From an uncultured Phycisphaerales bacterium (GTDB lineage: Bacteria; Planctomycetota; Phycisphaerae; Tepidisphaerales; Tepidisphaeraceae): DNA of 64,000 bases. The notes beneath the pieces are model-generated. The model saw only the letters and a program-made list of their open reading frames with translations, was not told the origin of the DNA and searched no databases. Position 1 is the stretch's first letter. Each line of letters starts with the position of its first letter. The DNA is taken from positions 1-64,000 of the forward strand of contig CAVWVQ010000002.1 of NCBI GenBank assembly GCA_963758525.1, read 5' to 3'. The position numbers were made by a program, and so were the translations under genes. This document shows positions 25,510 through 51,797 of the stretch, in pieces.

Positions 25510-25576
25510 GCAGGGCGGGATTCATCCCGCCGATTGACTCGCGCCAAAGGAGGCGGCAGGATGAATCCCGCCCTAC
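25510..25576. repeat. GTAG-type REP doublet (no outer shell); supplies the leuB TAG stop
   Basis: gcagggcgggattcatcccgcc ... ggcaggatgaatcccgccctac; same REP as inside the 143-bp element. Confidence 0.85.
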
Positions 25577-26649: not shown

Positions 26650-26732
26650 AGGGGGACGGAGAATATCGGGAGAAGCCGATGGGGGAAAGAGGCGGACAAG
26701 CCGGCCGGCTTGGAAGCCCGGCTTGGAAGCCC

Positions 26733-26791
26733 GAATGACGAAACCCGAAATCAGAATCAAAGAATCAAACCCGAATGACGAATGACCGAAT
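26733..26791. repeat. GAATGAC/GAATCAA 7-mer-family repeat arm
   Basis: gaatgacgaaacccgaaatcagaatcaaagaatcaaacccgaatgacgaatgaccgaat; its last ~38 nt match the reverse complement of the arm at ~51737-51775. Confidence 0.8.
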
Positions 26792-28426: not shown

Positions 28427-28499
28427 AGACGCCGGATCGGATCGTGCAACCACGCGGCCCAGGGGCGTGCATGCCCCCCTTCCGTGGAGATTTGCCTTC

Positions 28500-28617
28500 T
28501 CCCCTCCCCTGGTACTCCGGGGGAGGGTTGCGGTGGGGGACGTGTTGTGCGTAAGCGCTCTAGGCATCTTTGTCTACCCCTGAATCCGGCTCTCCCCCGA
28601 AGTACCGGGGGAGGGGA
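28500..28617. repeat. CCCTCTCCC-type palindromic element (two inverted halves) between convergent hsp20 and queG
   Basis: tcccctcccctggtactccgggggagggttgcggtggggg ... cccctgaatccggctctcccccgaagtaccgggggagggga. Confidence 0.8.
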
Positions 28618-28649
28618 AAAGAGAGCTCGCCCGAAGTGGCACGCCGCTT

Positions 28650-32411: not shown

Positions 32412-32601
32412 GGTGCTGGCCTCCAAGGTGAGTATGCGAAGAAAACGTACTGCTCGGCCGACTCTCGGGGCCGAATTCATCTCTCCGCGGCGGCGGGTGC
32501 TCTCAAGACGGAACGTCCGAAAGCTGGCGAATATCATCGCGTGTGAGGATAGAATCCCAGTCAAATAGTGTCAAGAAAAGACGGAATTGTCACTAGCCGG
32601 C

Positions 32602-32744
32602 GGGTGTGGCGCTCGAAAGTGGCGATCGGCTCCGAGTAGGGCGGGATTCATCCCGCCGATTTGTTGGCCGGCTGAGAAAACGGCGGGATGAATCCCGCCC
32701 TACGATCGCAAAATCTGCAATCGCCACAAATAAAAGTTACACCC
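32602..32744 (+). mobile_element. 143-bp MITE-like element with internal GTAG REP doublet (copy 1)
   Basis: Reads as the exact reverse complement of 47469-47611; both ends begin GGGTGT-N11-GTGGCGAT; core GTAGGGCGGGATTCATCCCGCC..GGCGGGATGAATCCCGCCCTAC. Confidence 0.88.
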
Positions 32745-32759
32745 CTTGCCGGCAATCCC

Positions 32760-32905
32760 AAATGACGAAACCCGAAACCAGAATGGGACAGGAGCCAGGA
32801 GCCAGGAGCCAGAAGCCAGAAGCATGGAGGGAGTCAGTAGAAAGGGGAATCCAGAGCCAGCTTGCTCCTGGCTTCTATTTGACTCTGGTTTCGTCATTCG
32901 GCTTT
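32760..32905. repeat. Composite 7-mer element: AATGACGAAACC arms around GGAGCCA tandem repeats
   Basis: aaatgacgaaacccgaaaccagaat..ggagccaggagccaggagccagaagccagaagc..ctcctggcttct..tctggtttcgtcattcgg. Confidence 0.75.
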
Positions 32906-32963
32906 CCGCGGCTGTTGGCGGCCAATTGCTTTGACCACCGTATCCATTACACTCCCCCCTCCC

Positions 32964-33823
32964 ATGAAAAGTGATCGACGGCACGACCTGAAGACCAACG
33001 CCCTTTCGCGGGGTATCGCAGAACTGCCAGAGTTCGGCCGCCGATACGGCAACAAGGTGCTGCTGGTCCTGATCTTCATCCTTCTGGCGGTCTTCCTGGT
33101 CCGATATCGCGCCAACAGGCCGAGCAAGACCGGATCACCGCGAGCAGCAGCCTGAGCACCGCCGAACGGGCGATTCACGATCTGTGGTACCAACCCGTGT
33201 TGCTCATGGGCGATCAACCGGCGATGGCCAGGTCGCGCGACTCGCTCAGTGCCGAAGCCGAATCCGCGCTGGAGGTGGCGCTCCGCACCGCTGTCGATCC
33301 GAGGGTGCGGGCCGACGCCTATGTGGCGCACGGCAACCTGGACTGGCTGCTGGCGAATTTCCCCCCGCTGCCCGCCGCGGCGACGCAGCCGTCGCTGGCA
33401 CTGCCCAAAAGCAGCGCGGACTATCTTGCTGCTGCCGCCAGCGCATATTCCGAGGTGCTGAAGGATCCACTTTCGAAGAATCAGGCTGCCGTCACCGCTG
33501 CTCGATTTGGGCTGTCGGCGATCGCCGAGAACAAGGAAGACTGGGCGCTCGCCCAGCGATATTACAACGACGTGATCAATGATCCCGGCACGGCCCCCGC
33601 CATGAAAGAATACGGCCAAGGCCGGCTGAAAGTGCTCGAAGATCTCAAGCGCCCGGTTCTGCTGGCATCAGAGCATCCAATTGATGTGCCTCCACCCGTC
33701 GCAGTTCCGACGCTCGGGCCGTTTGGGCCGACCACAGCGCCGGACTCGATCAACGGGCTCTCCCCTTTCTCGATTTCGCCGGCGCCCTACGTGCCAGCAA
33801 CGACACAACCCGGCGGGCGCTAG
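32964..33823 (+). CDS. Single-TM TPR-like protein (YfgM-like architecture); frameshift at ~33118
   Basis: MKSDRRHDLKTNAL, TM segment, helical repeats (AAASAYSEVL, ARFGLSAIAE....ALAQRYY), Pro-rich tail. Confidence 0.7.
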
Positions 33824-33835
33824 CTCTCGCAGTCA

Positions 33836-34933
33836 GTGACTGACGACCTGCCCAATCTTCCGATCGATCCCGATTCGTCTCCCATTGAGCGGGATGACGA
33901 GGCGGACATCGAGCGCTACCGGTTTCGCGTTGGCAAAAACCTGACACGCCGGATCGATCAATACCTCGTCGACCGAGTCCCCTATCTTTCGCGCAACGGC
34001 GTGCAACGGCTCATTGATGACGGCCTCGTCAAGGTCAACGGCAAGCCGACCAAGGCGAGCTATCATCCCAAGCTCAATGATGAAGTGGAGATGGTCGCGC
34101 CGCCCGAGCCGGTCAATGAGCTGGTGCCCGAGCCGATCCCGCTGGAAGTTGTCTATGAAGACGATCACCTGCTGGCATTGAACAAACAGGCCAATCTGAT
34201 GGTGCATCCGGCGCGCGGCAGATGGACGGGGACGCTCGTCAACGCATTGGTGTATTACGGTCAAAAGTGGAGCAGCATCAACGGCAACTGGCGGCCGGGC
34301 ATTTTGCACCGGCTGGATCGCAACACCACCGGCATCATGCTCGTGGCCAAGAGCGATGAGGCCCATTGGCGGGTCGCCCGGCAATTTGAAAATCGCACCA
34401 TCCAGAAGACATACATGGCCGTGATCCATGGTGTGCCGGAACTGTTGGCGGACGTGATCGATATGCCGATCGGGCGCGACCGATACGTCCGGGAAAAACA
34501 GGCAGTGCGGAAGGAATCCAACGGCGGCCGCGCAGCAGTGACGAAGTACGAGGTGCAGGAGGTTTTCGAGTCGCCGGCAGAGGTGCTGCTGGAAGAAAGC
34601 AAGTTCGCCGCCGACCACCGGCTCAAGAAGCCGCCGGCCAGGTTCGCCCTGGTCAAGCTGACGCCCAAAACCGGACGCACTCACCAGTTGCGCGTTCATC
34701 TGGCTGCGATCGGGCACCCCATCGTGGGGGACACCATGTACGGCGGACGCGTGTTTCGAAGCGGTGATTTCCTGCTGGAACGCCAGGCGTTGCACGCTTT
34801 TGAGATCTGCTTCACCCATCCGATTCAACTGGAATCGCTGACGCTTCAGGCCCCCCTGCCGGAGGATATCAACGCGCTGCTTGCAATTTTGCGAAAACCC
34901 GCCGTTTCACGTTCGAGCGGTTCGGGCGTATAA
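33836..34933 (+). CDS. rluD: RluA/RluD family pseudouridine synthase with S4 domain
   Basis: RIDQYL..SR..VQ.LI..G.V.VNG, VYEDD..LNKQA..MVHP, GILHRLDRNTTG, TGRTHQLRVHL..IGHPIVGD..YG, RQALHA. Confidence 0.9.
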   Translation: MTDDLPNLPIDPDSSPIERDDEADIERYRFRVGKNLTRRIDQYLVDRVPYLSRNGVQRLIDDGLVKVNGKPTKASYHPKLNDEVEMVAPPEPVNELVPEPIPLEVVYEDDHLLALNKQANLMVHPARGRWTGTLVNALVYYGQKWSSINGNWRPGILHRLDRNTTGIMLVAKSDEAHWRVARQFENRTIQKTYMAVIHGVPELLADVIDMPIGRDRYVREKQAVRKESNGGRAAVTKYEVQEVFESPAEVLLEESKFAADHRLKKPPARFALVKLTPKTGRTHQLRVHLAAIGHPIVGDTMYGGRVFRSGDFLLERQALHAFEICFTHPIQLESLTLQAPLPEDINALLAILRKPAVSRSSGSGV

Positions 34934-34981
34934 TCGTTTGAGTAATGTCCCCGGTCTACTTTTTCTTGAAGGACGCAGACG

Positions 34982-35350
34982 ATGTCTCACGTTTTGGCCT
35001 TTGGCATGCCGTCCATGGGTGAGTGGGTGGTGGTTGCCGTCATCGGGCTTCTCTTTTTCGGCAAGCGTCTTCCCGAGGTTGGCCGCAGCCTTGGCAAAGG
35101 GATTGTGGAATTCAAGAAAGGGCTCAAGGGAATCGAGGACGAAATCGAAGATCAGGTGGACGCCAGCGAGAAGGAGCAACAGCAGCGGCGTCTCGACCAG
35201 CAGCAGAAGCCGAAGTTCGATCCCTACACCGGCAAGCCTGTCGTCGAGCCGGGGCACAAGTTTGATCCGTATACCGGCAAGCCCCTTGACGCCGAGCCCG
35301 CGGAAACTGCCTCGAACGTTGCTTCGGGCGATGCATCGCAGCACGGATAG
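34982..35350 (+). CDS. tatA: Twin-arginine translocase TatA/TatE subunit
   Basis: GMP.MGEWVVVAVIGLLFFGKRLPEVGRSLGKGIVEFKKGL. Confidence 0.92.
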   Translation: MSHVLAFGMPSMGEWVVVAVIGLLFFGKRLPEVGRSLGKGIVEFKKGLKGIEDEIEDQVDASEKEQQQRRLDQQQKPKFDPYTGKPVVEPGHKFDPYTGKPLDAEPAETASNVASGDASQHG

Positions 35351-35459
35351 GGCCGAAGCTCGGGCTATTGAAATAGCTTTTCTATTGCATGGGCGCTGAC
35401 CGTCCGATTACAATTGGGGAGCAATCTTTTATTCAAAACTTCCACTGAGAGAGAACGCC

Positions 35460-36184
35460 ATGCGCATCACTCCGCTGCGGCTCATCGCTCTGTTGTTCGT
35501 CGCGTCACTTCTTCCCGCCAAGCTCCAGGCGGCGAGCGTCGTTCGACACCAGTTGGACGCGGTGCTGCCGGAAGTGAAGTTCGACGGGGTTTCGCTTGCC
35601 GACGCGATCGACTTTCTCCGCGATGTCTCGGGCAAAATATCACCGTCAATTGGAAAGCCCTCGAAGGCAACGGCATCGGCAAAGACACGCCGCTCAACGT
35701 GAAGCTGCGATCCATCTCGCTGCATCGCGCCTTGGATCTGATTCTCGGTGAAACCGGCGGCAGCGGTAAGATCGGCTACACCGTCGACGAAAACGTGATC
35801 GAGATTACCACGCAGGATCTGATCGACTCGCGCATGTATACACGCGTCTATCCGGTCGAAGACCTGATCATGGAAGTGCCTGATTTCTCGGACGCGCCGG
35901 ATTTCAGCCTGACTTCAACGTCGAACAATTCCAGCCAGAACGGCGGCGGCAACAGCGGTTCCGGATCGAGCCCATTCAGCGGCTCCAGCAGTTCCGCCAG
36001 CGCCGATAAAGGCAAAACCAAAACAGAGCGTGCCAATGAGTTGATGGACCTGATCCGCAGTGTCGTTCAGCCTGAAATCTGGCAGGAAAATGGCGGCAAA
36101 GCCGTCATCCGCTACTACAACGGCAACCTCGTCGTCACCGCTCCCCGCTCCGTCCAGGAAGCGATCGGCGGACCGTTCGACTGA
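35460..36184 (+). CDS. Exported STN/secretin-N-domain-like protein; frameshift at ~35635
   Basis: Signal peptide; PEVKFDGVSLADAIDFLRD, NITVNWKALE, LHRALDLIL, TRVYPVEDL, LIRSVVQPEIW..NGG, LVVTAP..VQ. Confidence 0.75.
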
Positions 36185-36202
36185 AATTAGTGCCGCAACT
36201 AT

Positions 36203-36257
36203 GTAGCACGGCCGTCCCGGCTGTGGTCCTAAATCACAGCCGGGACGGCTGTGCTAC
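36203..36257. repeat. GTAG-type REP doublet (second family)
   Basis: GTAGCACGGCCGTCCCGGCTGTG-gtcctaaat-CACAGCCGGGACGGCTGTGCTAC. Confidence 0.85.
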
Positions 36258-36382
36258 GGGGGCATCGCCCCGATCATTTGAGCAGGTTGTTCGTTCGCCG
36301 CGCCTGAGCAACGAAATTCGTGTTGTGGTGCGGATCGTTCCGCACCACATTTCGTTTGAACACGTCGGGAAAAGGTATCTTC

Positions 36383-36820
36383 ATGTCACCGCACCGGAGA
36401 CTCGGACCGAGCGCAGGCCTCATGGCGGCATCGGCCGCGGGTCTGTTGCTTTGGCCGACGCCCGCGCGAGCGGGGATGCCCCCACCTTTCGTGTTGACTG
36501 ATTTGGCGCAAATGCGCGTCGAAGCAATGTCATTTTTCCTCTTTTTACTGCTTCTATCGGCTGCAATTATTCAGCAGATCTGGAACTACCTCCGCGGCAG
36601 CTTCAAGCGCCTGCCGAGACTGAGTTACTTCAAGGCCGTATCGCTCGTCGCGCTCTGGGGCCTGCTCTTCATCATCGTGCTGGCGATGATTTCCGGCGGC
36701 CGTGAGTTAATGACGCCTGGGGCGTGGGAGAGAAATGGCGTCAGCTATCGTCTGGTCCCACCGGCGACGACCGAGCCCGCATCCAGACCGGTGGATGGCG
36801 ACGGAGGGTCTGCCAACTAA
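36383..36820 (+). CDS. Conserved hypothetical membrane protein
   Basis: AGMP...D.A..R.E..SFF, WNYL...F..LPRL.Y, LWGLLF..VL.MISGGRELMTPGAW; stop overlaps the next ATG (TAATG). Confidence 0.7.
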   Translation: MSPHRRLGPSAGLMAASAAGLLLWPTPARAGMPPPFVLTDLAQMRVEAMSFFLFLLLLSAAIIQQIWNYLRGSFKRLPRLSYFKAVSLVALWGLLFIIVLAMISGGRELMTPGAWERNGVSYRLVPPATTEPASRPVDGDGGSAN

Positions 36821-37683
36821 TGTCCGTCGCCGGGAGAATAACTCGATGGGGATTTGCGCTGGCATTGCTCTTCTTTGTGACGCAATGCATCGGCATTCAC
36901 CTGCCCGGGGAGGAATTCGTATTCTTTCTCATCATCGGTTGGCTGCCTTTCCTCGCGCATGTCGGCCCAAAGGTCCATGTGCGTTGGGACGCGATTGTGA
37001 GCACGGCGATCTATGCAGCGATTTTCGTCGCGGGCGCGCATTACTTTCTCCGCTGGCTTTTCCGCGAGATGTCGCGGGAGGGGCGGCAGCAACATTGGCG
37101 CTGGTCCTGGACGATCTGCGGCTTTGTAATCGTTCTGCTGATGTTCACCGCGGGAATGGCCGCCATCGGCATCGTGCATCAGACGGCGTGGCTGGCCTCG
37201 TCGAAAGCACCGTTGTACGAGCCTTACGGCGCAATCATCAACCGAATCAGATGCAACTCAAACCTCCGTCAGATCGGACTGGCAATCTCGAACTGGGCCG
37301 AAAATCACCACGGCAAGCTGCCCGACGACTTCAGCGAGGTTTTCGAGAGCGGGGACCTGATGCCAGAAAATTTCATCTGCCCGGCCAGCGATGACCAAAT
37401 CAGATCAGGGCAGAGGAACGCCGCGCCGGCAGCAAACCTGCTCCAGCCCGGCGCTTGTTCATACATTTATCTGGGAAAGGGGCTGACTCAACCGCTGCAG
37501 CCATCGCACGTTATTGCCGTCGAACCGTTGGAGAATCACAAGGACGCGGGCATCAACGTTCTCTTTGCGGATTGGCACGTCGAATGGCTGGATCGACCGC
37601 AGGCCGAATCGCTCCTGCTCGGCCTTGGCTTCCGGCGCGTGGAGACTGATCCAGATAAGCAAACCAACGCGGCAAATCCATAG
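36820..37683 (+). CDS. Multi-TM protein with C-terminal DUF1559/H-X9-DG-like domain
   Basis: 3-4 TM segments, then RIRCNSNLRQIGLAI, HGKLPD, FICPAS, SYIY, NHKDAGINVLFADWHVEW. Confidence 0.8.
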   Translation: MSVAGRITRWGFALALLFFVTQCIGIHLPGEEFVFFLIIGWLPFLAHVGPKVHVRWDAIVSTAIYAAIFVAGAHYFLRWLFREMSREGRQQHWRWSWTICGFVIVLLMFTAGMAAIGIVHQTAWLASSKAPLYEPYGAIINRIRCNSNLRQIGLAISNWAENHHGKLPDDFSEVFESGDLMPENFICPASDDQIRSGQRNAAPAANLLQPGACSYIYLGKGLTQPLQPSHVIAVEPLENHKDAGINVLFADWHVEWLDRPQAESLLLGLGFRRVETDPDKQTNAANP

Positions 37684-37731
37684 GACCAAGCGATACGGGT
37701 CACCGAGAGCTGCCCCGCCGCAGCCGTTGGA

Positions 37732-38176
37732 TCACCCGAAAAGCCTGACCCACAGCGGCGGCCCAAGAATCAGCAGCCCGACGCCTACCGACGCCATCGC
37801 CGCGATCAGCACCATTCCCGCGGCGAGATCTTTCGCCGCTTTGGCTCGCGGGTGAATCTCCGGCGACGCGAGGTCGATCGCGGCTTCCACGGCGGTGTTC
37901 AGCCCCTCCAGGATCAGCACCAGCGCAATTGTAAAAATGATCACCGCCCACTCGGTTCGGCTGATGCGCAGCCATAGGCCCAGCGCAGGCACCGATGCCG
38001 ATGATCAGTTCGATCCGCGCGTTGAGCTGGGTGCGAAAGAGATATCCCAAACCCGCGAACGCGAAGCCAAACGAGCGGATGATGCGAATCTGAAGAGGAT
38101 CTGCGGATGCTCGCGGAGCGATCGGCAGCGCAGCACCGTTGGAAGGCTCAGACTTTGCGATTTGCGGGTGGTCCAT
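37732..38176 (-). CDS. dgkA: Diacylglycerol/undecaprenol kinase (DgkA family); frameshift at ~37988
   Basis: RSFGFAFAGL..LFRTQ.NARI, LVL.LEGLNTAVE..IDL.SPE.HP.AK.AKDLAAG.VL. Confidence 0.85.
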
Positions 38177-38180
38177 CGTA

Positions 38181-39161
38181 TCAGTCGGTTTCCGTCCACT
38201 CTTCGCCGGCTGCGCGAACGATCACTCGATCGCGATCGCGTCCCGCGGCGGCAAGCATACGCTCGATCGGCTCATGCATCGGCTCATGGCTTAGACGAAA
38301 TGTGCTGTGATGCATTGGTAAAAGCCATCGGCCGCCCACGTGCTCGAACATCTGCCAGACCTGCTCGGGGGTCGCATGCGCCTGGATATACGGGTCATAC
38401 GCTCCGATTCCAAAGATTGCCAGATCGACGCCGCCGACGTCGGTGAAACGCCGATAGGCAGTGTCGCCCGCATAGAACACGCGCCGCGGCCGCGTACGCA
38501 GTCCTTTTCCCCTCCCTCGGTACTCCGGGGGAGGGTCAGGGTGGGGGCAATGCGCGGCGCCGGCGTCCATTACGTACCCGTTGTACCCGCGATAAGTGTC
38601 TTGAAACGTTCGCGCGCCCCAGTGCTTCACTTCGCAGGCACGCAACTCGATGTTATCGATTTGGGTTGACTCGCCCCACCGCAATTCCGTGATGTTTTGA
38701 AAGCCCAGGTCGCGGATCAAATCCCGCGTGCGGCTGGCGGTGACCACGGGCGTGCTCTTGTGCAGCTTCACCAGCGTGGGCCGGTCCAGATGATCGAAAT
38801 GTGCGTGCGAAATCAGAATCAGGTCGAGCTTGGGAAGCTCGTGCGGGCGCAGGGCTGCGGCCACGAGTCGTTTGGGGCCGGCCGTCATGACGCCAAGTCC
38901 GACGCCAATGCGGTGGCTCAGAACGGGGTCGGTGAGAATGGTTTTCCCGGCAACCCGCAGGAGCACAGTAGCGTGGCCGAGCCAGACAGCGGAGAAGTTG
39001 CGCGAGTCCCAATCCCGCAGATCCGGCTTGCGGCGAGGGCTCGGCGGCGGGTTGAACTGATCGAGCACGCGCAGGCGTCCCCGTCCGCGGCCAAGCCCGT
39101 CCGCGAGGCGCAGGGCGCCGGGACGGCTTTTTGCCCAATCTGCGATGCGCCGCCAACTCAA
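38181..39161 (-). CDS. MBL-fold metallo-hydrolase (NAPE-PLD/RomA-like)
   Basis: VWLGHATVLL, ILTDPVLS, ISHAHFDHLD, KHWGAR, FYAGDT, IGAY.P, H..PE, PMHH.TF; TTG start overlaps the upstream stop. Confidence 0.88.
   Translation of the reverse strand: MSWRRIADWAKSRPGALRLADGLGRGRGRLRVLDQFNPPPSPRRKPDLRDWDSRNFSAVWLGHATVLLRVAGKTILTDPVLSHRIGVGLGVMTAGPKRLVAAALRPHELPKLDLILISHAHFDHLDRPTLVKLHKSTPVVTASRTRDLIRDLGFQNITELRWGESTQIDNIELRACEVKHWGARTFQDTYRGYNGYVMDAGAAHCPHPDPPPEYRGRGKGLRTRPRRVFYAGDTAYRRFTDVGGVDLAIFGIGAYDPYIQAHATPEQVWQMFEHVGGRWLLPMHHSTFRLSHEPMHEPIERMLAAAGRDRDRVIVRAAGEEWTETD
38508..38548. repeat. CCCTCTCCC-type half element inside the MBL coding sequence
   Basis: tcccctccctcggtactccgggggagggtcagggtggggg; 35/40 identical by eye to 28500-28539. 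Confidence 0.8.
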
Positions 39162-39934
39162 CTTTCGGCCTCTGCTTCGATCTCCGCTCCGATGGGAAAA
39201 TGATCGCTGCAATATTTTGCCAGGCGATCCTGCTCCACCCAGGAAGAGCGCAACTGGCGGGAAGCAAAGCCGTGCGCGAAGATGTAATCGACGCGCTGGC
39301 CGGGGTGTTGCGTGGAAAATGTGCCGGTGGTCGCAGCGTCGGCCCCGAGTTCGGCAAAAACGTCCGCATAACCCGAATCGAGCATTTTCTGAACAGCGCG
39401 CCGCGGCAGCGATCCGCCATTGCGCTCCCATTGCTCGCGAGTCTTCGGCTTGCACCGGGACGGATCGATGCGCTGTGATGGCGCATTGGCGTTGAAGTCG
39501 CCGGCGATAATGTGCGGCTGAGATGCCTCTCGGTGACGCTCGAAGATTTGCAGCACCGCGCCCAATTCGATTTCGCGGCGGCGCTCATCCGCGTCGGTAG
39601 CCCCGGCAGGCAGATGCAGCGCTGCCACGATCCACTCCCGCCCTGCGGGATCGATGACGGTCGCTTCCAGGAGCGACCGGGAGATTTCAGGAACGAGCAA
39701 TGCGTGATTGATTGAGTCGCGAATCGGCCAGCGGCTGAGGATCGCCGACGCGTGCGACTTGCCCATGCCTTGAATGCTATCCATCGCCAGTCTGCGGGAA
39801 ATTCGGTCCAGTACGGTCGGATCTTCCGCCTCGACCAGCACCACGATGTCCGCCCGCTGCGCAAGAATCACCTCCGCCAAGGGGTCGGCACGCCCTTCTC
39901 CGCCGTCGAGGATGTTGTAGCTGATGAGGCGCAC
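39158..39934 (-). CDS. Endonuclease/exonuclease/phosphatase family protein
   Basis: RLISYNI, ADIVVLVE, ILSRWP, IAGDFNA, RVDYIF, SDHFPI. Confidence 0.9.
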   Translation of the reverse strand: MRLISYNILDGGEGRADPLAEVILAQRADIVVLVEAEDPTVLDRISRRLAMDSIQGMGKSHASAILSRWPIRDSINHALLVPEISRSLLEATVIDPAGREWIVAALHLPAGATDADERRREIELGAVLQIFERHREASQPHIIAGDFNANAPSQRIDPSRCKPKTREQWERNGGSLPRRAVQKMLDSGYADVFAELGADAATTGTFSTQHPGQRVDYIFAHGFASRQLRSSWVEQDRLAKYCSDHFPIGAEIEAEAES

Positions 39935-40072
39935 GTATTTATCGGACCAAAGCGCCCCCGAAGGAATCCACCAGCGGGTTTGCTGCTCGCGAATACGTAT
40001 CGTAGCTTCGATCCGCAGGGCTGTCAGCGCGGGGTCGCGATGGCAAGATCCTGCGGTGTGGGAGAGATTGCG

Positions 40073-40516
40073 ATGCGACATGCGTTATTTGGAGAATTGC
40101 TCAGCCGGCACGTCAGCCTGAGCGATCACGACATTTCCGAGATCCTGCTGGATCAGGCGATTTCGCATCGCCGATTCGGCGAGATCGCCATGGCATTCCA
40201 GTGGTGCCGCCCGCAGCACGTCTGGCAGGCGTGGTGGGCGCAGCTCGGCGAATCGGCGCAACACGTTTCGCTGCCAGCGGTTGGCGTGGACACTCAAGCG
40301 TTGGGGTCGGTCTCGAGAGCAATGGCGGAGGAATACTGCGTGATTCCGATCCGCGTCTATGGAGATCAACTGGTTTTGGCCGCGTCCGAGGCGTCGCAGG
40401 CCAGGGCAGCCGCGGAACTGCCTCAACTGGTGCAAAAAGCGCTGCGCTTCGTCGCCGCGCCCGAGCGGCAAATCCGGGAGGCAATTGATTTGCACTACAT
40501 GGATGACACAAACTAA
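40073..40516 (+). CDS. Stand-alone MshEN/GspE N-terminal domain protein
   Basis: FGELL....LS..DI.EIL..Q....RRFGEIA, then A..Y.VIPI......LVLA, L.FV.A...QI..AI..HY; no ATPase domain. Confidence 0.7.
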   Translation: MRHALFGELLSRHVSLSDHDISEILLDQAISHRRFGEIAMAFQWCRPQHVWQAWWAQLGESAQHVSLPAVGVDTQALGSVSRAMAEEYCVIPIRVYGDQLVLAASEASQARAAAELPQLVQKALRFVAAPERQIREAIDLHYMDDTN

Positions 40517-40787
40517 AGGTTTAAGCGGGTTTCACGTTGTGCCGCGGCTATACACCAGTGTGCGGGCATTGCCGAGCTAACACTTTGCAATGCCCGCGAC
40601 ATTATCTGCCTTTTGGATGCACACAAACTAACCGCCACCCCGCATCTCTTTGGCAAGATTGCCTAATCCATAATCAACGACTCTAAATTGTCGCAAACCC
40701 CGGTTTCCCGGGCCACAACGCTGTTCTTGAAGTGCCAGGCAACGTTTTCACGCCGCGGGTTGACACCATGCCTGCGCGACTTCTTAT

Positions 40788-40802
40788 TGGCACAACCTTT
40801 GT
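40788..40802 (+). promoter_or_regulatory. Possible sigma-54 promoter of the APC permease
   Basis: TGGCACAACCTTTGT ~115 nt upstream of the start; non-canonical -12 (GT). Confidence 0.35.
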
Positions 40803-40915
40803 TCTAGGCGTTCCGATGCTGCACCGTCGCCGGGCGTGCTATGCGCTCAGCCCCAGCGCGGGCCGAGGTCGTTTCCTCTGCGCAGCCAGAACCAATCTGA
40901 CAAAGGAGAGTATTC

Positions 40916-42826
40916 GTGGCAGATACATCGACGATAACTACGCCTAAGCCAACCCTCGGGCTGACGGGCCTCACCTCCAACGCCATGGCGTTGATCGCGC
41001 CGGGCGCGTTTCTCTGGCTGACGTTTGGTGGCCAAGTGCTCACCGGCGCGCCTGCGGCCGGCATGTCCATGTGGCTGGGCATCCTGTTCGCGCTGTTGCT
41101 CTGTCTGGCAACCGCGGTGGCCTATGCGGAGTTGTCCAAGCTGTATCCTGGGGCTGGATCGAGCTACTTCTTTGCCGAGCAGGCGTTCCTCTCGAAAAAG
41201 AAGGCGTTCAAGTTGGCCCGGCTGTCGAAGTTCGTTGTCGGCTGGGCGAGCCATCTTTATTACTGGGTCTACCCGGGCGTCATGGTGGGCGTTACCGCGA
41301 TGATCGTCGGCTACATGACCGGCCAGATCGACGCGCACTTTTCCGATGGCAGTCATCTCAGCACCCTGATCCCGAGCCCCATTTTCATGTATCTGTTCTG
41401 TATCGCCTTTGCATTCGGTGTCGCATACATCGCCTACCGCGGAGTGGTGGGATCCACCGGCGTGGGTGTTGCGATCAATATCACTCAGATCGTGGCATTG
41501 CTGATCTTCTCGGTCATGGCTATTCGCCATCGCGTCGCTCACCCCGAAGGCAGCGCGATATGGGTGCTGGATTCGACCGGCACACCAACGCAATACGTTC
41601 AGGATACCGTGCCTGACACGACCAAGACGATCGCTGACCCCAAAGATCCGACAAAGCAGATTCAGGATCCGACCGCCACGATTCCCGCCGTTGATAAGGA
41701 CGGCCATGCAATCCCGGCCAAGGGTCCGGACGGAAAACCACAGTTGGTAACGGTTTCCTACCTTGGCGGCATCACCAAGGATCCGGCGACAGGCGTGGAA
41801 ACATTCAATTATCATGAAAGCGCCAAGTCCGTGGTAGCACCCCATCAGGCGGGTTACGTGATCATCCAGGCGTGTATCGCGATTCTGATCCTGGTTGGAT
41901 TTGAGTCGGTGACGTCGATGGGTGAAGAGGCGAAGAACGCCAAGCGAGACATCCCAAAGGCGGTCATTCTCTCGCTGCTGATTCAGGGCGGCTTCTGCTA
42001 TCTCTTCGAGTATTTTGCGGCGAATTACTATCTGAACAACGGTTACACCGCAACCGCCGCGGGCGGCTCTTCCGCGCCGATCGGCGACATCATGCAATTG
42101 GTCGGGGCTTCGGCATTCGGAAGCGCCAACGCCGGCTGGTGGTTCATGATGATTGAAGCGTGCACCGTCTTCCTGGCTCTGATCGGCACAACCCTCTCGT
42201 GCATGAACACCGGCGCGCGCGTCACCTACGCGATGGGTCGCGATCAGGAGATGGGCGCTCACTTTGGCATCCTCCACGGCAAGAACGCAACGCCTCATAA
42301 GGCGATCTGGGTGCTCGCGACGCTGTCGGCGGCACTGGGTATCCTCACTGTGATGTTCTGGTTCTGCGGGCCTGCCGCACAGGCGGATACGGTCATCGAC
42401 GCGTTGCCTAAGAATTTCATGTACAAGATCGGCATCTTCCACAATGCGTGGTCATCGAAGATTCCGCAAAGCTTCCTTTGGATAACGCTGGTCAGCAACT
42501 TCGGAACGTTCCTGCTCTACATGATGAGCTGCTTCATTGCCATCGTGGCATTCCACGAACACCAAATGCATGGCTTTTTCAAGCACAAGGTGATTCCGAT
42601 CTTCGGATTGCTGGCTAACTTGCTGTGCATGGTGTTCTATCTGGTCGGTCCGATCCCCGGCTGGAAGTACTCTGTGAACGGCATGAGTTGGAAGGAGCCG
42701 TATGTGGCTCTCGCTGTTGCCGCCCTCTGGGGCATCTACGGTGCGATTTATTTCATCACCGGCAGCAAGAAGACCGGCAAGTCCGTCTTCATCGAAACGC
42801 CCCCAGCCGTGGCGGCCTCGGTCTGA
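40916..42826 (+). CDS. APC family amino acid/polyamine permease
   Basis: RBS aaggag; ~12 TM; AYAELSKLYPGAGSSY, LVGFESVTSMGEEAKNAKRDIPKAV, ARVTYAMGRD, TPHKAI. Confidence 0.9.
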   Translation: MADTSTITTPKPTLGLTGLTSNAMALIAPGAFLWLTFGGQVLTGAPAAGMSMWLGILFALLLCLATAVAYAELSKLYPGAGSSYFFAEQAFLSKKKAFKLARLSKFVVGWASHLYYWVYPGVMVGVTAMIVGYMTGQIDAHFSDGSHLSTLIPSPIFMYLFCIAFAFGVAYIAYRGVVGSTGVGVAINITQIVALLIFSVMAIRHRVAHPEGSAIWVLDSTGTPTQYVQDTVPDTTKTIADPKDPTKQIQDPTATIPAVDKDGHAIPAKGPDGKPQLVTVSYLGGITKDPATGVETFNYHESAKSVVAPHQAGYVIIQACIAILILVGFESVTSMGEEAKNAKRDIPKAVILSLLIQGGFCYLFEYFAANYYLNNGYTATAAGGSSAPIGDIMQLVGASAFGSANAGWWFMMIEACTVFLALIGTTLSCMNTGARVTYAMGRDQEMGAHFGILHGKNATPHKAIWVLATLSAALGILTVMFWFCGPAAQADTVIDALPKNFMYKIGIFHNAWSSKIPQSFLWITLVSNFGTFLLYMMSCFIAIVAFHEHQMHGFFKHKVIPIFGLLANLLCMVFYLVGPIPGWKYSVNGMSWKEPYVALAVAALWGIYGAIYFITGSKKTGKSVFIETPPAVAASV

Positions 42827-42861
42827 TCTGACGCCTCGCGCGGATCAATCAACGGAACGAC

Positions 42862-42896
42862 GGGCGGTCACCTTCGGGTGGCCGCCCTTTCCTTTT
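42862..42896 (+). terminator. Rho-independent terminator between convergent genes
   Basis: GGGCGGTCACC-TTCG-GGTGGCCGCCC followed by tttcctttt. Confidence 0.8.
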
Positions 42897-42923
42897 GCTG
42901 GACGCTCCATGGGCGTACCTGGG

Positions 42924-44744
42924 CTATTCGCGTACCGGCGCCCGAGGCAGCGTGAATTGAAAGATGCTTCCGCCGCCGGGTGGTTGAACGTATTCGATCG
43001 TACCGCCGTGGGCGTCGACGATTTCCCTGGCGATCGACAGCCCGAGCCCCGCGCCGCTCGGGCCGCTCTTGCGTGGAACGCGGAAGAATCGTTCGAACAA
43101 GTGAGATTGAAATTCCGGGGCGATACCTGGTCCGGTATCGCGGACGCCAAAGAGAACATCCTGAGGTTGGAGTCGGGCAAAAACCGTGACCGAACCCCCG
43201 GCGGGCGTGAACTTGATCGCGTTGACCAGAAGATTTGATAGCGCGTAGCCGACACAGCTCGCATCGGCCATCACCTCCGGGAGCCCAGGCTCGACATCCA
43301 TAGCCAGTGTCAGCGGCGCGGTGTCGATTTGCTCCCGCAGCGGGTCGACGGCTTGACGCACGATCTCCTCAGCCCGCATCGGCGCAAATTGAAAATGTTG
43401 GCCGCCCGATTCAATTCGGCTGATGCTCAGCAGATTATCGATCGTCCGATAGAGCCGGTCGCTGTCATCGCGCGCGGCCTCCAGCACTTTCTTTTGCGAG
43501 GGTCCGACTGGCCCCAGCTTTCCGTCCACCAGCATCAGCACGGCCATGCGGATGGCCGTCAGCGGGGTGCGGAGCTCGTGTGACACCGTCGAAACCAGGC
43601 CGCTCTTGAGCTCGTCGGCGTGCCGCAGGCGCGTGACATCGACGAGAATCACCGTGACTCCCATCAGTTGCCGTTGAGTATTCATCATCGGAACGGCCCG
43701 TGGGAGCAGGAATCGCTCCTGACCATTCTCGAAAAGCTGAATCGCCGACTGGTAACCCTGTGGATCGCATGGCTCGCGCGTCGCGCAGACCTGGGTGTAG
43801 ATCCTGTCGAGCCACTTGAGTCCCAGCGACGGCAGAGTCACTCCCGGGGCGACGGAGAAATGACTTTGCGCCGTCCGATTCGAGATTTCGATAATTCCGC
43901 CCGGGCGGATCACGAAGACGGCATCGGGCAGGCTGTCGATCGCAAGCTGAGTCGTTTCCTGGGTGCGCTGCAGCCGTTCGTGATCGATCCGGCGAAACTC
44001 CCGCAAACGTTCGGCCATCGCGTTAAAGGATTCGGTCAGCTGCGCGATCTCATCACGGCCCTTCACCTGCACGCGCAAATCCAAATCCCCTTCACCAATC
44101 TGTTGCGCCGAGCGTGTCAGCGTTTGCAGCGGACGCAGAACGGTCGCGCCAACCGCGGCGACGAGCACCACCGCGAGCAGGGTTCCCGCCGCCGCGAAAA
44201 TCAGCAGCGTATCGCGTACGGAGCCGAGCATGCGTTTCACCCGCCCATCCACCGACACCATATTGGAAATGTTCAGGTCCGCCACCGCCTGGGCGGCGGT
44301 TTTGACCTGTTCGTATTCGGGCAGCAGTTCGTCGCGGAACAGCGACCGCTTCTGAGGAATGTCGGCGGCTCCCTCAAAACGATCGTAGGATTCGCGGTAT
44401 TTTTGCCACGAGTCCTGGATTTGCGCCGTGAGCTGCTTCTCGTGCTGCAGCGTGATATTCCTCACCTGGCGCCCAAGGTTCTCGTCAAACTGCTGCCGCA
44501 TCACCACGGAGTTGGCGCTTCCCTCGGCGGCGCGGTTCCAGACGATCCGCTGGGCCCGCGCATCAAGGGCATCGATCGCCTCCTTCATCCGGTCGCAGTA
44601 AACGGCACTGTCATAGTTCTCGCGAAAGACTTGATCCAGAGCCGAGCTGTATCGAGTAAGCACTCCAACGCTCAAAGCGCTGACGGCCAGCAATATCACC
44701 AGCAAACCCCCGAAGCCGATCATCAGCTTGTGCCGAAGGCTCAT
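42924..44744 (-). CDS. Sensor histidine kinase (four-helix sensor, HAMP, PAS, HisKA, HATPase); no adjacent response regulator
   Basis: 2 TM; RDEIAQLTESFNAMAERL, VSHELRTPLT, NLLVNAIKFT, DTGPGI, GAGLGLSI, HGG.I. Confidence 0.93.
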   Translation of the reverse strand: MSLRHKLMIGFGGLLVILLAVSALSVGVLTRYSSALDQVFRENYDSAVYCDRMKEAIDALDARAQRIVWNRAAEGSANSVVMRQQFDENLGRQVRNITLQHEKQLTAQIQDSWQKYRESYDRFEGAADIPQKRSLFRDELLPEYEQVKTAAQAVADLNISNMVSVDGRVKRMLGSVRDTLLIFAAAGTLLAVVLVAAVGATVLRPLQTLTRSAQQIGEGDLDLRVQVKGRDEIAQLTESFNAMAERLREFRRIDHERLQRTQETTQLAIDSLPDAVFVIRPGGIIEISNRTAQSHFSVAPGVTLPSLGLKWLDRIYTQVCATREPCDPQGYQSAIQLFENGQERFLLPRAVPMMNTQRQLMGVTVILVDVTRLRHADELKSGLVSTVSHELRTPLTAIRMAVLMLVDGKLGPVGPSQKKVLEAARDDSDRLYRTIDNLLSISRIESGGQHFQFAPMRAEEIVRQAVDPLREQIDTAPLTLAMDVEPGLPEVMADASCVGYALSNLLVNAIKFTPAGGSVTVFARLQPQDVLFGVRDTGPGIAPEFQSHLFERFFRVPRKSGPSGAGLGLSIAREIVDAHGGTIEYVQPPGGGSIFQFTLPRAPVRE

Positions 44745-44765
44745 GGCCGGAAATCATAACGAATC

Positions 44766-44980
44766 AAGGCGCAGAGGCACGGAGGAAAAGATGCCAAGAG
44801 TTGGGGATTGCAAATTGCAAAATTGGAAAAAACGCCGGCTACTTGTTCCCGTCTTCAAATTGCAAGTCAGGCTCCGACGTTCCGCCGCCGGGCGGACTCC
44901 TGCTCAATTTGCAATTTACAATTTGCAATTTGCAATCCCCAACTCCCCGCATCTTCTCTCCCTCCGCCCCTCCGCGCGTT
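44766..44980. repeat. Nested ~215-bp hairpin (outer CGCAGAGG-type arms, inner TTGCAAA 7-mer arms)
   Basis: Perfect 24-bp inverted pair 44798-44821/44922-44945; outer aaggcgcagaggcacggaggaaaagatgc / gcatcttctctccctccgcccctccgcgcgtt. Confidence 0.85.
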
Positions 44981-45017
44981 TCCTCCCCACCCCTTCTTCC
45001 CGTACCTTTTGTCACCA

Positions 45018-45617
45018 ATGCCTGCTTCAACCCGGATTCGCGCTGTTACGGTTTACTGCTCCGCCAGGGAGGACGTGGACCAGATCTATTTTGACGCCGC
45101 CCGGCAACTGGGCGGCGCGATTGCGCGCAGGAGTTGGCAACTGGTCTATGGCGGCAATGATCTGGGATTGATGGGGACGCTCGCGAACGCCGCCCGGGCC
45201 GCCGGTGGCAAAGTCATCGGCGTCACTCCGCGCCTGTTTGTGGATCAGGGCGTTGCGGACCGCAAATGCGATGAATTGATCATCACTGACAACATGCGTC
45301 AGCGAAAGGAAATGGTCGAGCAACGAGGGGATGCGTTCATCGCGCTTCCCGGCGGACTGGGAACTCTCGAAGAATTTTTCGAGATCGTGGTGGGTCGGGT
45401 TCTGGGTTATCACGATAAGCCGATCGTTCTGCTCAACATTGCCGACTTCTACGCCCCGCTGCTGGCCATGCTCGATCACGCCGTCGGGCAGCGCTTCGTC
45501 CCGGCGCAGGCGCGGCAGTTCTTTCACGTCGCCCAAACCGTTGAGCTGGCGCTGGCTCATCTTGAAGCGCAAGCCGCAAAGCCTTTGCACGGCGCCGTTT
45601 CCACCGAAGCCGACTAA
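45018..45617 (+). CDS. LOG family nucleotide phosphoribohydrolase (TIGR00730)
   Basis: VYCS, LVYGG..LGLMG, M..RK, DAFIALPGGLGTLEEFFE, HDKPI.LLN..DFY. Confidence 0.92.
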   Translation: MPASTRIRAVTVYCSAREDVDQIYFDAARQLGGAIARRSWQLVYGGNDLGLMGTLANAARAAGGKVIGVTPRLFVDQGVADRKCDELIITDNMRQRKEMVEQRGDAFIALPGGLGTLEEFFEIVVGRVLGYHDKPIVLLNIADFYAPLLAMLDHAVGQRFVPAQARQFFHVAQTVELALAHLEAQAAKPLHGAVSTEAD

Positions 45618-45673
45618 CCCGCAAAACCTTCAATGCGACTCCGCCGATCAGGGCGATATCATATACGGCGCCC

Positions 45674-46770
45674 ATGGTCCGGACCGAACGCTACATTTTC
45701 ATCGCCATCAGTGCCTCGCTGCTGCTGCACGCAGGTCTATTAGGCGTGGCGACGGAAAAGGCGCGATATCCGAAAATTTATCTGCCGCCGTTGCGACGCG
45801 CGGAGAGCACCGTCGTCATTGCGCTCCAACCGCCGCCGCCCCCTCCGCCCGACGACATGGGCGACCGTGCCGGGGTCGGCACGGCGTCGAGCGCGTCAGC
45901 TGGGCCGACACCATTGCAGGCGCGGCAGGCGGATCAGGATCAGCCGCAGCTCAGTCGCGATCCGACGGGGCCTGCGAAAATCGCGCATGCGCCCAATCCC
46001 TCCAACATCCCGCCCGGGGAGCGCGGGCGAGGAGGCCAGCGCGGACAGATTGCCATCGAAACGCCGCCACAGCGAGAATCGCCGGTGCAGCCAGCGCTGA
46101 CACCTCCTCCGCAGACTCCGGTCGTGGCGGCAGTTGCCCCGCCCAAGCCGGCTGTCCAGCCCCCTAAACCTGCAGCAGAGCGAGCTACCGCCGATCAGCC
46201 GACAGCCCCGCCGGAAATCAAGCCCGAATCAGTCTCCTTGCCCAAGGCGCTGCTCTTGCCGCCCGACATCAAATTGCCCCCGCCTGCCACCGCGCCCGAG
46301 GTTCAGGTGGCAGTCGTCTCGCCCCCCACTCCCGCGCCGCGAAAGAGTACCGCCCAGGTGAAGCCTCAGGCCGCCACCGGCGACGGGCTGGCGCCCGGCG
46401 CGCGACGGCCGCCGATCCTTACCAGCAAAGCGACTCCGAATCCGATGCGTTCACCACCGTCGGATCGGCGGTCGTTCACGATGGACGGATCAGTGTCCGC
46501 GCCGGTCGAAAAATCAAAACGGTTCGCCCGCTGCTGCTCGTCCCCGGCATCCTCGATACGCTGGGCGAGAGCGATCCATCCGTTCAGTTGAAGGTCAACA
46601 TCGATGCGACGGGTAAAGTGACATCGGTCGATGTGCTGCATTCCAGCGGAAGCAACGACATCGATCAGCCCTGTGTCGTGGCAATGTACGACTGGTGGTT
46701 TGAACCCAGCCGCGACAGCAAGGGAAAGCCGATTCCCGACGTCGTTCTTTTTACGCTCAGTTTTCGCTGA
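45674..46770 (+). CDS. TonB/TolA-like energy transducer; frameshift at ~46403
   Basis: N-terminal ISASLLLHAGLL TM with His, Pro-rich linker, C-terminal IDATGKV..V.VL.SSG..DID......W.F.P. Confidence 0.8.
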
Positions 46771-47459
46771 TGAAACTTTCCGAGCTCTTCTATTCGATTC
46801 AAGGCGAGGGAAAGCTCGCAGGCGTGCCGAGCATTTTTGTGCGGGCCAGCGGGTGCAATCTGCGATGCACATGGTGTGACACTCCCTATGCAAGCTGGAA
46901 TCCGCAAGGAGACGAAGCGTCCATCCAGCAGATCATCAACCGGGTGGCAGAATATCCGTCCCGTCACGTCGTGCTCACCGGCGGCGAGCCAATGATCATG
47001 CCGGACATCGTCGAATTGTGCGCTGCCCTGAAAGATCGCCACTATCACCTGACAATGGAAACCGCAGGGACGGTGCATGCGGCGGCGAAAATCGATTTGG
47101 CCTCGATCTCTCCGAAGCTTTCCAACTCAACGCCGGTGCAACGCGAAGCGGGACGGTTCGCCGTCGCGCACGAAGCGCACCGCATCAACGTTGCAACGAT
47201 CCAACGGCTCATCGACGACAGCCCCGACTTTCAGGTGAAATTCGTTATCTCGGCCGATTCCGACCTTCCGGAGATAGACGCCGTGCTGCAACAGCTTCAT
47301 GGCTGGTCCCCCGCCGATGTGCTGCTGATGCCGGAGGGAACCGATCCGGCAGTGCTGAGGGAGCGTTCCGCCTGGGTCTCCGAAATCTGCAAGCAAACCG
47401 GCTTCCGCTTCTGCCCCCGCCTGCATATTGCGCTCTACGGCAATACCCGTGGAACGTGA
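46770..47459 (+). CDS. queE: 7-carboxy-7-deazaguanine synthase (radical SAM)
   Basis: ELFYSIQGEG, FVR.SGCNLRCTWCDTPY, VLTGGEP, ETAGT, SISPKL, PRLHI. Confidence 0.95.
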   Translation: MKLSELFYSIQGEGKLAGVPSIFVRASGCNLRCTWCDTPYASWNPQGDEASIQQIINRVAEYPSRHVVLTGGEPMIMPDIVELCAALKDRHYHLTMETAGTVHAAAKIDLASISPKLSNSTPVQREAGRFAVAHEAHRINVATIQRLIDDSPDFQVKFVISADSDLPEIDAVLQQLHGWSPADVLLMPEGTDPAVLRERSAWVSEICKQTGFRFCPRLHIALYGNTRGT

Positions 47460-47468
47460 GTAACACGC

Positions 47469-47611
47469 GGGTGTAACTTTTATTTGTGGCGATTGCAGAT
47501 TTTGCGATCGTAGGGCGGGATTCATCCCGCCGTTTTCTCAGCCGGCCAACAAATCGGCGGGATGAATCCCGCCCTACTCGGAGCCGATCGCCACTTTCGA
47601 GCGCCACACCC
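47469..47611 (-). mobile_element. 143-bp MITE-like element with internal GTAG REP doublet (copy 2, inverted)
   Basis: Reverse complement of 32602-32744; lies 9 bp after the queE stop. Confidence 0.88.
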
Positions 47612-47740
47612 GTACAGGCGGATCGCTCCACAACCACTTGTGTTACGACTCGCCGATCGCACCGGCGCAGCTTGCCCTTCGCGGAGCGATCAACCTGCCT
47701 ACAATCGCGACGATCGCCCATTCACCAAAAGGAGCACCAC

Positions 47741-48838: not shown

Positions 48839-48992
48839 CCCCTCTGGTCCCCTCTGTTGGTACCTCTCTGGTCCCCTCTCCTGGCACTGAGGGATAGGGT
48901 GAGGGTGATTTCGAGCACCAATTTCGCTCGACATTCCAAATCACCCTCACCCCAACCCCCCCAGCCCTCTCCCGGAGTACCAGGAGAGGGGG
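48839..48992. repeat. CCCTCTCCC-type palindromic element preceded by CCCCTCTGGT-like repeats
   Basis: cccctctcctgg..gggtgagggtgattt..aaatcaccctcacccc..ccctctcccggagtaccaggagagggg. Confidence 0.8.
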
Positions 48993-51531: not shown

Positions 51532-51581
51532 CGGGAAAGAGGGTAAGCGAGGAGGAGCGGAATGTGTAGCGCCGGCCTGAA

Positions 51582-51797
51582 ACCAGAATGACGAAACCAG
51601 AAATCAGAATCAAACCAGAATGACGAATGACCGAAACCTCGTTGTCGATTGTGAGTACCCTTTCAGAGGTTCCATCCACCGACGCGCGTCACGCCGCGCA
51701 GTTTCCACAGCTGTGCGCGCAAATTTCAGCCTCTTCATTCGGTCATTCGTCATTCGGGTTTGATTCTTTGATTCGGGGATTCTGGTTTCGTCATTCC
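51582..51797. repeat. Inverted pair of GAATGAC/GAATCAA 7-mer-family arms around a ~100-bp spacer
   Basis: accagaatgacgaaaccagaaatcagaatcaaaccagaatgacgaatgaccgaa ... ttcggtcattcgtcattcgggtttgattctttgattcggggattctggtttcgtcattcc. Confidence 0.85.

Follow-up and report, generated by a model that had tools for sequence, protein, structure and literature searches.

By what route has one small palindromic repeat come to lie, within an identical pair of transposon-like ends, at two separate places in the genome of an uncultured Phycisphaerales bacterium? The stretch analysed (hereafter the window) comprises 64,000 nucleotides, positions 1 to 64,000 of contig CAVWVQ010000002.1 (assembly GCA_963758525.1), and the feature in question is a 143-bp element in which terminal inverted repeats (TIRs) enclose a doublet of repetitive extragenic palindromes (REPs) of the GTAG-tagged type. 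An earlier note on this DNA had proposed a hybrid non-autonomous element, a REP doublet in a TIR shell, that spread recently, and this proposal is borne out by the copies of the element across the assembly, by their target-site duplications (TSDs) and by a new insertion in another strain. [quoted passage not shown] Sequence comparisons further make it quite probable that this MITE, with the REP as its cargo, is moved in trans by an ISKra4-family transposase and is guided upstream of housekeeping promoters.

The moving unit

Sequence comparison and BLAST place the first copy at 32602..32744 (+ strand) and the second, identical to it, at 47469..47611 (- strand), so that the one stretch is the exact reverse complement of the other, as had been noticed at the outset. 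In the first copy, a left TIR of 25 bp (32602..32626, +), which matches the left end of an ISKra4-type IS in relatives, is followed by a linker of 9 bp, the doublet of 68 bp (32636..32703, +), a linker of 16 bp and a right TIR of 25 bp (32720..32744, -), in which 2 of 25 positions depart from the right end of the IS of one relative (G057). The doublet consists of two inverted 22-bp REP units around a 24-bp spacer and can form a long hairpin; in the second copy it occupies 47510..47577 (-). Both TIRs are imperfect and bipartite, and both fit GGGTGT-N11-GTGGCGAT, which confirms the anatomy first described. The further statement that the same doublet occurs without its shell at 25510..25576 (+) holds only in part, since the REP family is the same and these TIRs are indeed missing there, but the spacer differs and the doublet is therefore not the same one. 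An Rfam scan of the 143-mer gave no family at gathering score, only sub-threshold matches to microRNA hairpins.

Beyond the window, the assembly analysed (G000; 6 contigs, 6.47 Mb, 90.9% completeness) holds 69 young copies, defined by BLAST as matches of at least 98% identity over at least 135 nt; this count replaces one of 48 obtained with a fuzzy regular expression, which missed copies. The 69 copies, 45 of them identical, differ by 25 scattered substitutions in 9,724 nt, and 33 further BLAST matches are older or partial. The flanks differ from copy to copy, so that the spread goes beyond a two-copy assembly duplication, and the reversed pattern, which served as a control for the element ends, gave 0 matches. 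A perfect TSD borders 53 of the young copies (8 bp in 40, 9 bp in 13), while the TSD has one mismatch in 10 and is worse in 6; its sequence is not fixed among copies, and none of 2,256 random pairings of left and right flanks reaches 8 bp. The TSDs lie directly at the GGGTGT ends, with which the copy boundaries coincide. The earlier impression that there was no clear TSD thus has to be withdrawn; it arose because both window copies have imperfect ones, with one mismatch in 9 between the left half (32593..32601, +) and the right half (32745..32753, +) in the first copy, and a decayed pair with 3 mismatches in 8 in the second. When the empty sites were reconstructed, only 3 of 53 fell within an open reading frame (ORF) of 100 codons on both sides, whereas 55% of random sites did so.

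An empty and a filled version of one site are found when G000 is compared with X1, a public soil run that holds a close strain. One contig of X1 tracks contig C3 of G000 up to position 3827039 (2 differences in 299 nt) and then continues with 143 letters that start with the left end of the MITE, and a second contig picks up C3 9 bp before that point, where it follows the right end of the MITE. G000 has no element at this place (C3:3827031-3827039), and this single pair shows that the whole unit of shell plus REP was inserted with a 9-bp duplication. Since the boundaries and the TSDs lie at the GGGTGT ends, and since an IS with these ends exists, it is the TIR shell that is the moving unit. That the 14.7 kb separating the two window copies had been inverted was considered and rejected, there being no swapped TSDs among the 48 copies of the first count.

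The source of the ends and the choice of target

Among 140 genomes of relatives, the exact bipartite end was found in 39, some of these being chance single matches (control 0). The IS with GGGTGT-N11-GTGGCGAT ends that had been looked for does exist, in relatives rather than in G000: G057 has four complete copies of 1,431-1,432 bp with 8-9-bp TSDs, similar elements occur in G068, G125 and G112, and G125 contains both the IS and 12 MITEs. In G057 the transposase is split into overlapping frames at an A7 run, which fits the two-ORF, -1 frameshift description of the ISMich2 group, and the part after the frameshift, when scanned, has ISKra4 (NF033572) as its best NCBIfam match (E 2e-54). In a tree of 24 transposases, where ends could be called for about half of the loci, only one clade has GTGGCGA ends (G057, G068, G112 and G125; support 100/100), TTGGCG or CGGGTAG ends occur in sister clades, and the elements of G000 itself lie far away. 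The direct repeats of the parent IS (8-9 bp) and the length of its inverted repeats, within 18-39 bp, correspond to those of the p-MULT 4 (ISKra4) family. A search of G000 for PF00872 (IS256) gave no match, a sequence search of the PDB with the transposase gave 0 matches, and so did a search of JGI metagenomes with the exact right-end pattern. Three solitary end-like matches in G000 were discarded as candidate parents: C3:4336050 and C3:362740 have no transposase alongside, and C1:251285 has the appearance of another repeat in a decayed shell.

To judge from what is described for the family, a transposase of this kind (p-MULT 4, Mutator-like, with a DDE active site) would bind the bipartite TIRs, a circular intermediate would be made and then inserted, and insertion would probably involve contacting RNA polymerase at sigma70 promoters. 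Where the copies lie can be compared with this scheme. A TTG trinucleotide at offsets 24-29 is present outside the left end of 36 of the 69 young copies and outside the right end of 7 (ten other windows: 3-10; Fisher p 1e-7), and TA..[AC]T at offsets 46-54 outside the left end of 35 and the right end of 1 (Fisher p 4e-12). A strict sigma70 scan finds 18 of 69 at left offsets 24-29, with a mode of 26, and none there on the right. Most copies, and most of the IS copies that were checked, are thus oriented alike and stand with their left end upstream of a predicted sigma70-like -35 box, at a distance of about 26 bp, and by eye a -10-like hexamer at the same offset is seen at the X1 site, beside the four IS copies of G057 and beside many MITEs of relatives; a -10-like motif recurs there in 10 of 27 older copies. 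The first window copy illustrates this arrangement, with a sigma70-like promoter (TTGACA-17 nt-TATCCT, 32546..32574, -) directed away from its left end and a -35 box that starts 27 nt outside the element. At the second copy a weak -35-like hexamer (47638..47643, +) lies 26 nt outside the left end, and no matching -10 was seen for it. The pattern is that of insertion at a fixed distance upstream of sigma70/sigmaA-like promoters, and the fixed offset together with the single orientation cannot be put down to purifying selection alone, which would favour only intergenic sites. Tandem pairs of MITEs about 8 bp apart are found at C3:4692663-4692920 in G000 and at L077 in G015, as expected if a promoter site or an element end is struck twice.

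Three other accounts of how the element multiplied have to be weighed. The identity of the copies might be an artefact of assembly or the product of gene conversion, with no recent transposition, and mismatches in TSDs are indeed commoner than the internal divergence of the element predicts; however, distinct TSDs, scattered substitutions and the new insertion in X1 make this account very improbable. Hardly more credible is a REPIN (an inverted REP pair) moved by a tyrosine transposase associated with REPs (RAYT, an HUH enzyme) with the TIR-like flanks as passive bystanders. The core is a GTAG-tagged doublet of perfect palindromes, the genome has 23 Pfam Y1_Tnp matches, and the REP is widespread without these flanks, but the boundaries and the 8-9-bp TSDs lie at the TIRs, the same shell holds unrelated cores in relatives, and the TSD-flanked new insertion largely refutes it. 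Moreover, in the incomplete G000 assembly none of the 23 Y1_Tnp matches and none of 48 matches to a profile biased towards local Y1 proteins belongs to a gene flanked by this REP (none of the 48 lies within 700 bp of it, the nearest being at 712 and 735 bp), and only one truncated Y1 fragment was seen near the REP at 80 loci of other genomes. The term REPIN, in its strict RAYT-associated sense, accordingly lacks support here. The third account concerns the enzyme, as G000 has four ISKra4-like transposase genes of its own, three of which belong to complete IS with GGGTGT ends, 8-9-bp TSDs and other inner motifs. These resident elements, IS-A (1,498 bp; C3:3320260-3321757 and C5:72113-73610) and IS-B (1,466 bp; C3:1464719-1466184), make up the assembly's whole complement of complete p-MULT elements, the terminal GGGTGT is common to them and the MITE, and both copies of IS-A have promoter-like boxes 26-27 nt outside one end, so that relaxed end recognition by one of them might be invoked. 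Yet the inner motifs differ (TGGGAG and GTGGGG), the transposases are distant from the GTGGCGA clade, it is the right end of IS-A that faces the promoter-like box and the left end in the MITE and the G057 IS, and among 56 TSD-flanked GGGnGT elements there is no MITE with IS-A or IS-B ends. Movement by a resident element is hence improbable.

Movement by a GTGGCGA-clade transposase towards promoters, which is here preferred, has its own difficulties. The G057 transposase scores 185 bits, below the ISKra4 cut-off of 205 bits (again for the part after the frameshift), and no transposase of its clade was found in the G000 assembly, where the best identity is 26-30%; the gene may be missing from an assembly of this completeness, or it may have been lost. 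In about half of the copies the expected offset shows no clear promoter motif, and the orientation of the genes beside the copies, taken from a crude ORF model, is uninformative. The empty and filled pair depends on two separate contigs of one run, and neither window copy is covered by the runs X1-X3. Finally, 12 of 65 TSDs have 1-3 mismatches, where about 4% would be expected from the divergence of the element itself, an excess that could stem from gene conversion among copies or be a feature of the insertion step. All of these observations weigh against the account given above, as does one concerning how the cargo was acquired, namely that the linkers have no clear derivation from the interior of the IS.

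Shelled REPs and filled shells

The GTAG REP itself is intergenic and abundant in G000, with 372 units in 197 clusters, each with the tag and a palindrome, and it is found in several phyla, including records of Humisphaera and Tepidisphaerales. The units form 152 inverted doublets, and a count of shelled against naked ones gives 117 in three shell types and 35 in no recognised shell. The ISKra4-type shell accounts for 91 (3 decayed), CTAG-type ends, a class called with loose motifs, for 21, and CTWAG-type ends for 5. The end of the CTAG shell agrees at 22 of 23 positions with the end of an IS630-like element in G073 (NCBIfam E 5e-8, a fragment having been scanned). These shells are older and surround doublets of this REP at C3:60786, C4:5778, C4:120964 and about 18 more places in G000, as well as at L289, and several form tandem arrays. 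The CTWAG shell is about 135 bp long, with ends near GTACACATCCCC and a CTWAG target, and has five copies in G000 (C1:81608, C3:567186, C3:2399154, C3:4944801 and C4:~114205); no autonomous parent IS was found for it. In a Polarisedimenticolaceae metagenome-assembled genome, from another phylum, the same type of doublet occurs at L206 and L213 in a further common flank, with inverted ends near ATTCAGCAC. The spacers form a separate lineage in every shell type and are varied in the unshelled doublets, a pattern that fits separate captures from an older REP population. REPs of this lineage have thus likely spread as passengers and not by an enzyme of their own, and no catalytic part of the REP has been demonstrated.

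The ISKra4-type shell can also be sought without regard to what it holds. A search for both ends 20-260 nt apart, with the interior ignored, returned 65 elements from G000 and, from 12 of the 140 relatives, a further 40 (control 0). From the relatives 38 of the 40 were retrieved, two copies in G146 being left out, and their TSDs are perfect in 20, have one mismatch in 11 and are worse in 7. A small multi-copy repeat is present in 37 of these 38 shells; the sole empty one measures 65 bp and has no TSD. A further apparently repeat-free shell was seen at L094. By our own grouping the cores of the relatives belong to about nine families. Three of these correspond to repeats that are abundant in G000; the remaining six are multi-copy where they occur, even with the copies held in ISKra4-type shells set aside, and their units number 146 in G146, 522 in G096, 23 in G136, 28 in G137, 23 in G130, 70 in G131 and 10 in G005. 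In G015 the core family of the G146 shells reaches 229 units, yet the shells of G015 itself hold another core, which points to independent captures. With a relaxed pattern, a sample of 400 other genomes of the phylum gave matches in 3 (control 1), one of the three with a clear repeat doublet, too few to generalise. Three-level nesting was seen in the repeat core of the ISKra4-type shell at L090 (G141) and L078 (G015), where an IS5-like element (a 296-aa ORF with a weak match) or another short TIR element has been inserted.

As to origin, a member of an older, diverse REP population would once have come to lie between two IS ends, most simply if a REP inserted into an IS, or into a shorter MITE, and a deletion followed, and the composite would then have been amplified in at least two waves. 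Why shells should be filled at all is a separate matter. The reading that we prefer, at about even odds, is that bare end pairs are too short or too stiff for synapsis and amplification, and that spread was confined to shells which an inserted repeat, often a hairpin-forming one, had made longer. The broader proposition, that hitch-hiking in MITEs of DDE transposases is the general main route of small palindromic repeats and that a filler is obligatory for amplification of the shell, whether for length or as a fold-back hinge, seems to us somewhat doubtful. A strict need for a hairpin is opposed by the single CCCC-type and G130 cores, which fold weakly (z +0.1 to -5), and by a 101-bp deletion variant in G000 (C3:3379074-3379174), in which the doublet is collapsed to one REP palindrome and which nonetheless has a perfect 8-bp TSD. 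Since some cores fold weakly, the hairpin hinge is not required in every case.

Two further readings of the filling have to be set beside these. In repeat-rich genomes any MITE might soon collect a repeat, the filling being neutral; indeed, the repeat landscape of G000 comprises 2,094 intervals in dozens of families, MITEs and repeats occupy the same intergenic space, insertions are nested inside cores at L078 and L090, and an empty shell of 65 bp exists. However, that empty shell is a single one and lacks a TSD, and only 12-18% of non-coding 95-bp windows in G000 hold at least 20 bp of repeat, against 12 of 14 shell lineages (binomial 7e-8, for lineages of our own grouping that are not independent and a background taken from G000 alone), which renders neutral filling rather unlikely. 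Alternatively, the core might be kept for the benefit of the host, as a two-way hairpin with T-rich tails that insulates promoters from read-through or stabilises upstream mRNA. The element lands beside promoters, each strand has one REP unit with a terminator-like score, and the 143-mer folds far better than shuffled sequences (z -7.8); but function cannot be read off consensus scans, T makes up only 5 of 8 letters in the tails, and the cores of relatives are diverse and some fold weakly, so that host benefit is possible and, on balance, unlikely. Transposition of the filled shell, as set out above, has several implications. The movement of one REP lineage inside a shell that generates TSDs is demonstrated, three shell types house roughly three quarters of this REP's doublets, and across a bacterial family a single shell family has acquired about nine to ten families of repeats, with empty shells being rare. 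REP copy number should therefore not be read as RAYT activity. If hitch-hiking is the correct explanation, a promoter-homing transposase would put two-way hairpins directly upstream of dozens of promoters, and the spread of some REP families would have a RAYT-independent, testable answer.

Known systems and other repeats

QMITE2 of Coxiella burnetii is a MITE of about 190 bp with TIRs of 23-29 bp, unique direct repeats of 7-9 bp and a GTAG REP inside; alongside it occur shorter versions consisting of the REP only, which are read as truncated MITEs. Its transposase and origin were left undetermined, and the element was thought to be ancient and immobile (PMC5896051). The 143-mer resembles it in having a GTAG REP inside a MITE with similar direct repeats, and differs in having an identified IS clade, polymorphism between strains and promoter targeting; moreover, the unshelled doublets of G000 have diverse spacers of their own.

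The p-MULT elements, which occur in Planctomycetes, have direct repeats of 8-9 bp, inverted repeats of 18-39 bp and circular intermediates; p-MULT 4 is the ISKra4 family, with the groups ISAzba1, ISMich2 and ISKra4, and p-MULT 3 comprises TnGBS/ISLre2 (PMC3942029). The right end of p-MULT 3 lies about 16 bp upstream of sigmaA promoters, the ISKra4 group targets promoters in both orientations, transposases of the ISMich2 group are frameshifted, and the word MITE does not occur in that report (PMC3942029). Direct repeats, inverted-repeat length, occurrence in Planctomycetes and a fixed distance upstream of a promoter are all likenesses to the system described here, whereas the present IS is frameshifted and yet promoter-targeted, with its left end at about 26 bp. 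Promoter targeting is thereby extended to a frameshifted p-MULT 4 lineage. Beyond the TSD the distance is 17-18 bp, and the published value of about 16 bp may or may not include the direct repeat (PMC3942029).

REPINs have been characterised as slow duplicators distinct from MITEs (PMC3733652; PMC8266576; bioRxiv 2021.07.10.451892), and how REPs spread has been called an open question (PMC8266576). Like GTAG REPs and REPINs, the present repeat has the GTAG tag, a perfect palindrome, inverted doublets and many intergenic copies; it differs in that no RAYT flanked by it was found here and in that one doublet lineage has MITE-like uniformity and TSDs.

In plants, Pack-MULEs have TIRs of the Mutator superfamily around gene-fragment sequence that is foreign to the parent element, and the TIRs of the 143-mer likewise enclose foreign sequence. 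The cargo here is a small repeat, and IS630-type shells behave in the same way, so this is not Mutator-specific. A literature search, outside which most subscription journals lay, turned up no paper on either ISKra4-type MITEs with REP cores or repeated capture. Each ingredient thus has a precedent, and the main additions are the empty and filled pair, the transposase clade and the near-universal filling by unrelated repeats. With one transposase, one 143-mer and a defined target rule, the system is compact enough for experiment.

Other repeats accompany the element. At C3:1312105 in G000 a Y1 domain in a 905-aa frame is flanked by another REP family (GTACCACGGG type), of which it is likely the RAYT, and near-identical, multi-copy Y1 transposase genes in the same genome have short flanking repeats of their own. 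A composite family of 233-370 bp with nested repeats has 13 copies in G000 (e.g. C4:65385), and a repeat at C6:5282 is identical, flanks included, to C3:57797, so that C6, a contig of 8 kb, may repeat a portion of C3. Within the window, the second MITE copy is intergenic, with a radical SAM gene on one side and a Zn-dehydrogenase gene on the other, and the unshelled doublet at 25510..25576 sits between an isocitrate/isopropylmalate dehydrogenase gene and a thioredoxin-reductase-like gene. Further small repeats of the window, which are heptamer-type and CCCC-type inverted pairs, lie at 26726-26791, 28495-28621, 32753-32901, 38503-38547, 44785-44958, 48867-48991 and 51579-51774, one of them directly 3' of the first MITE copy.

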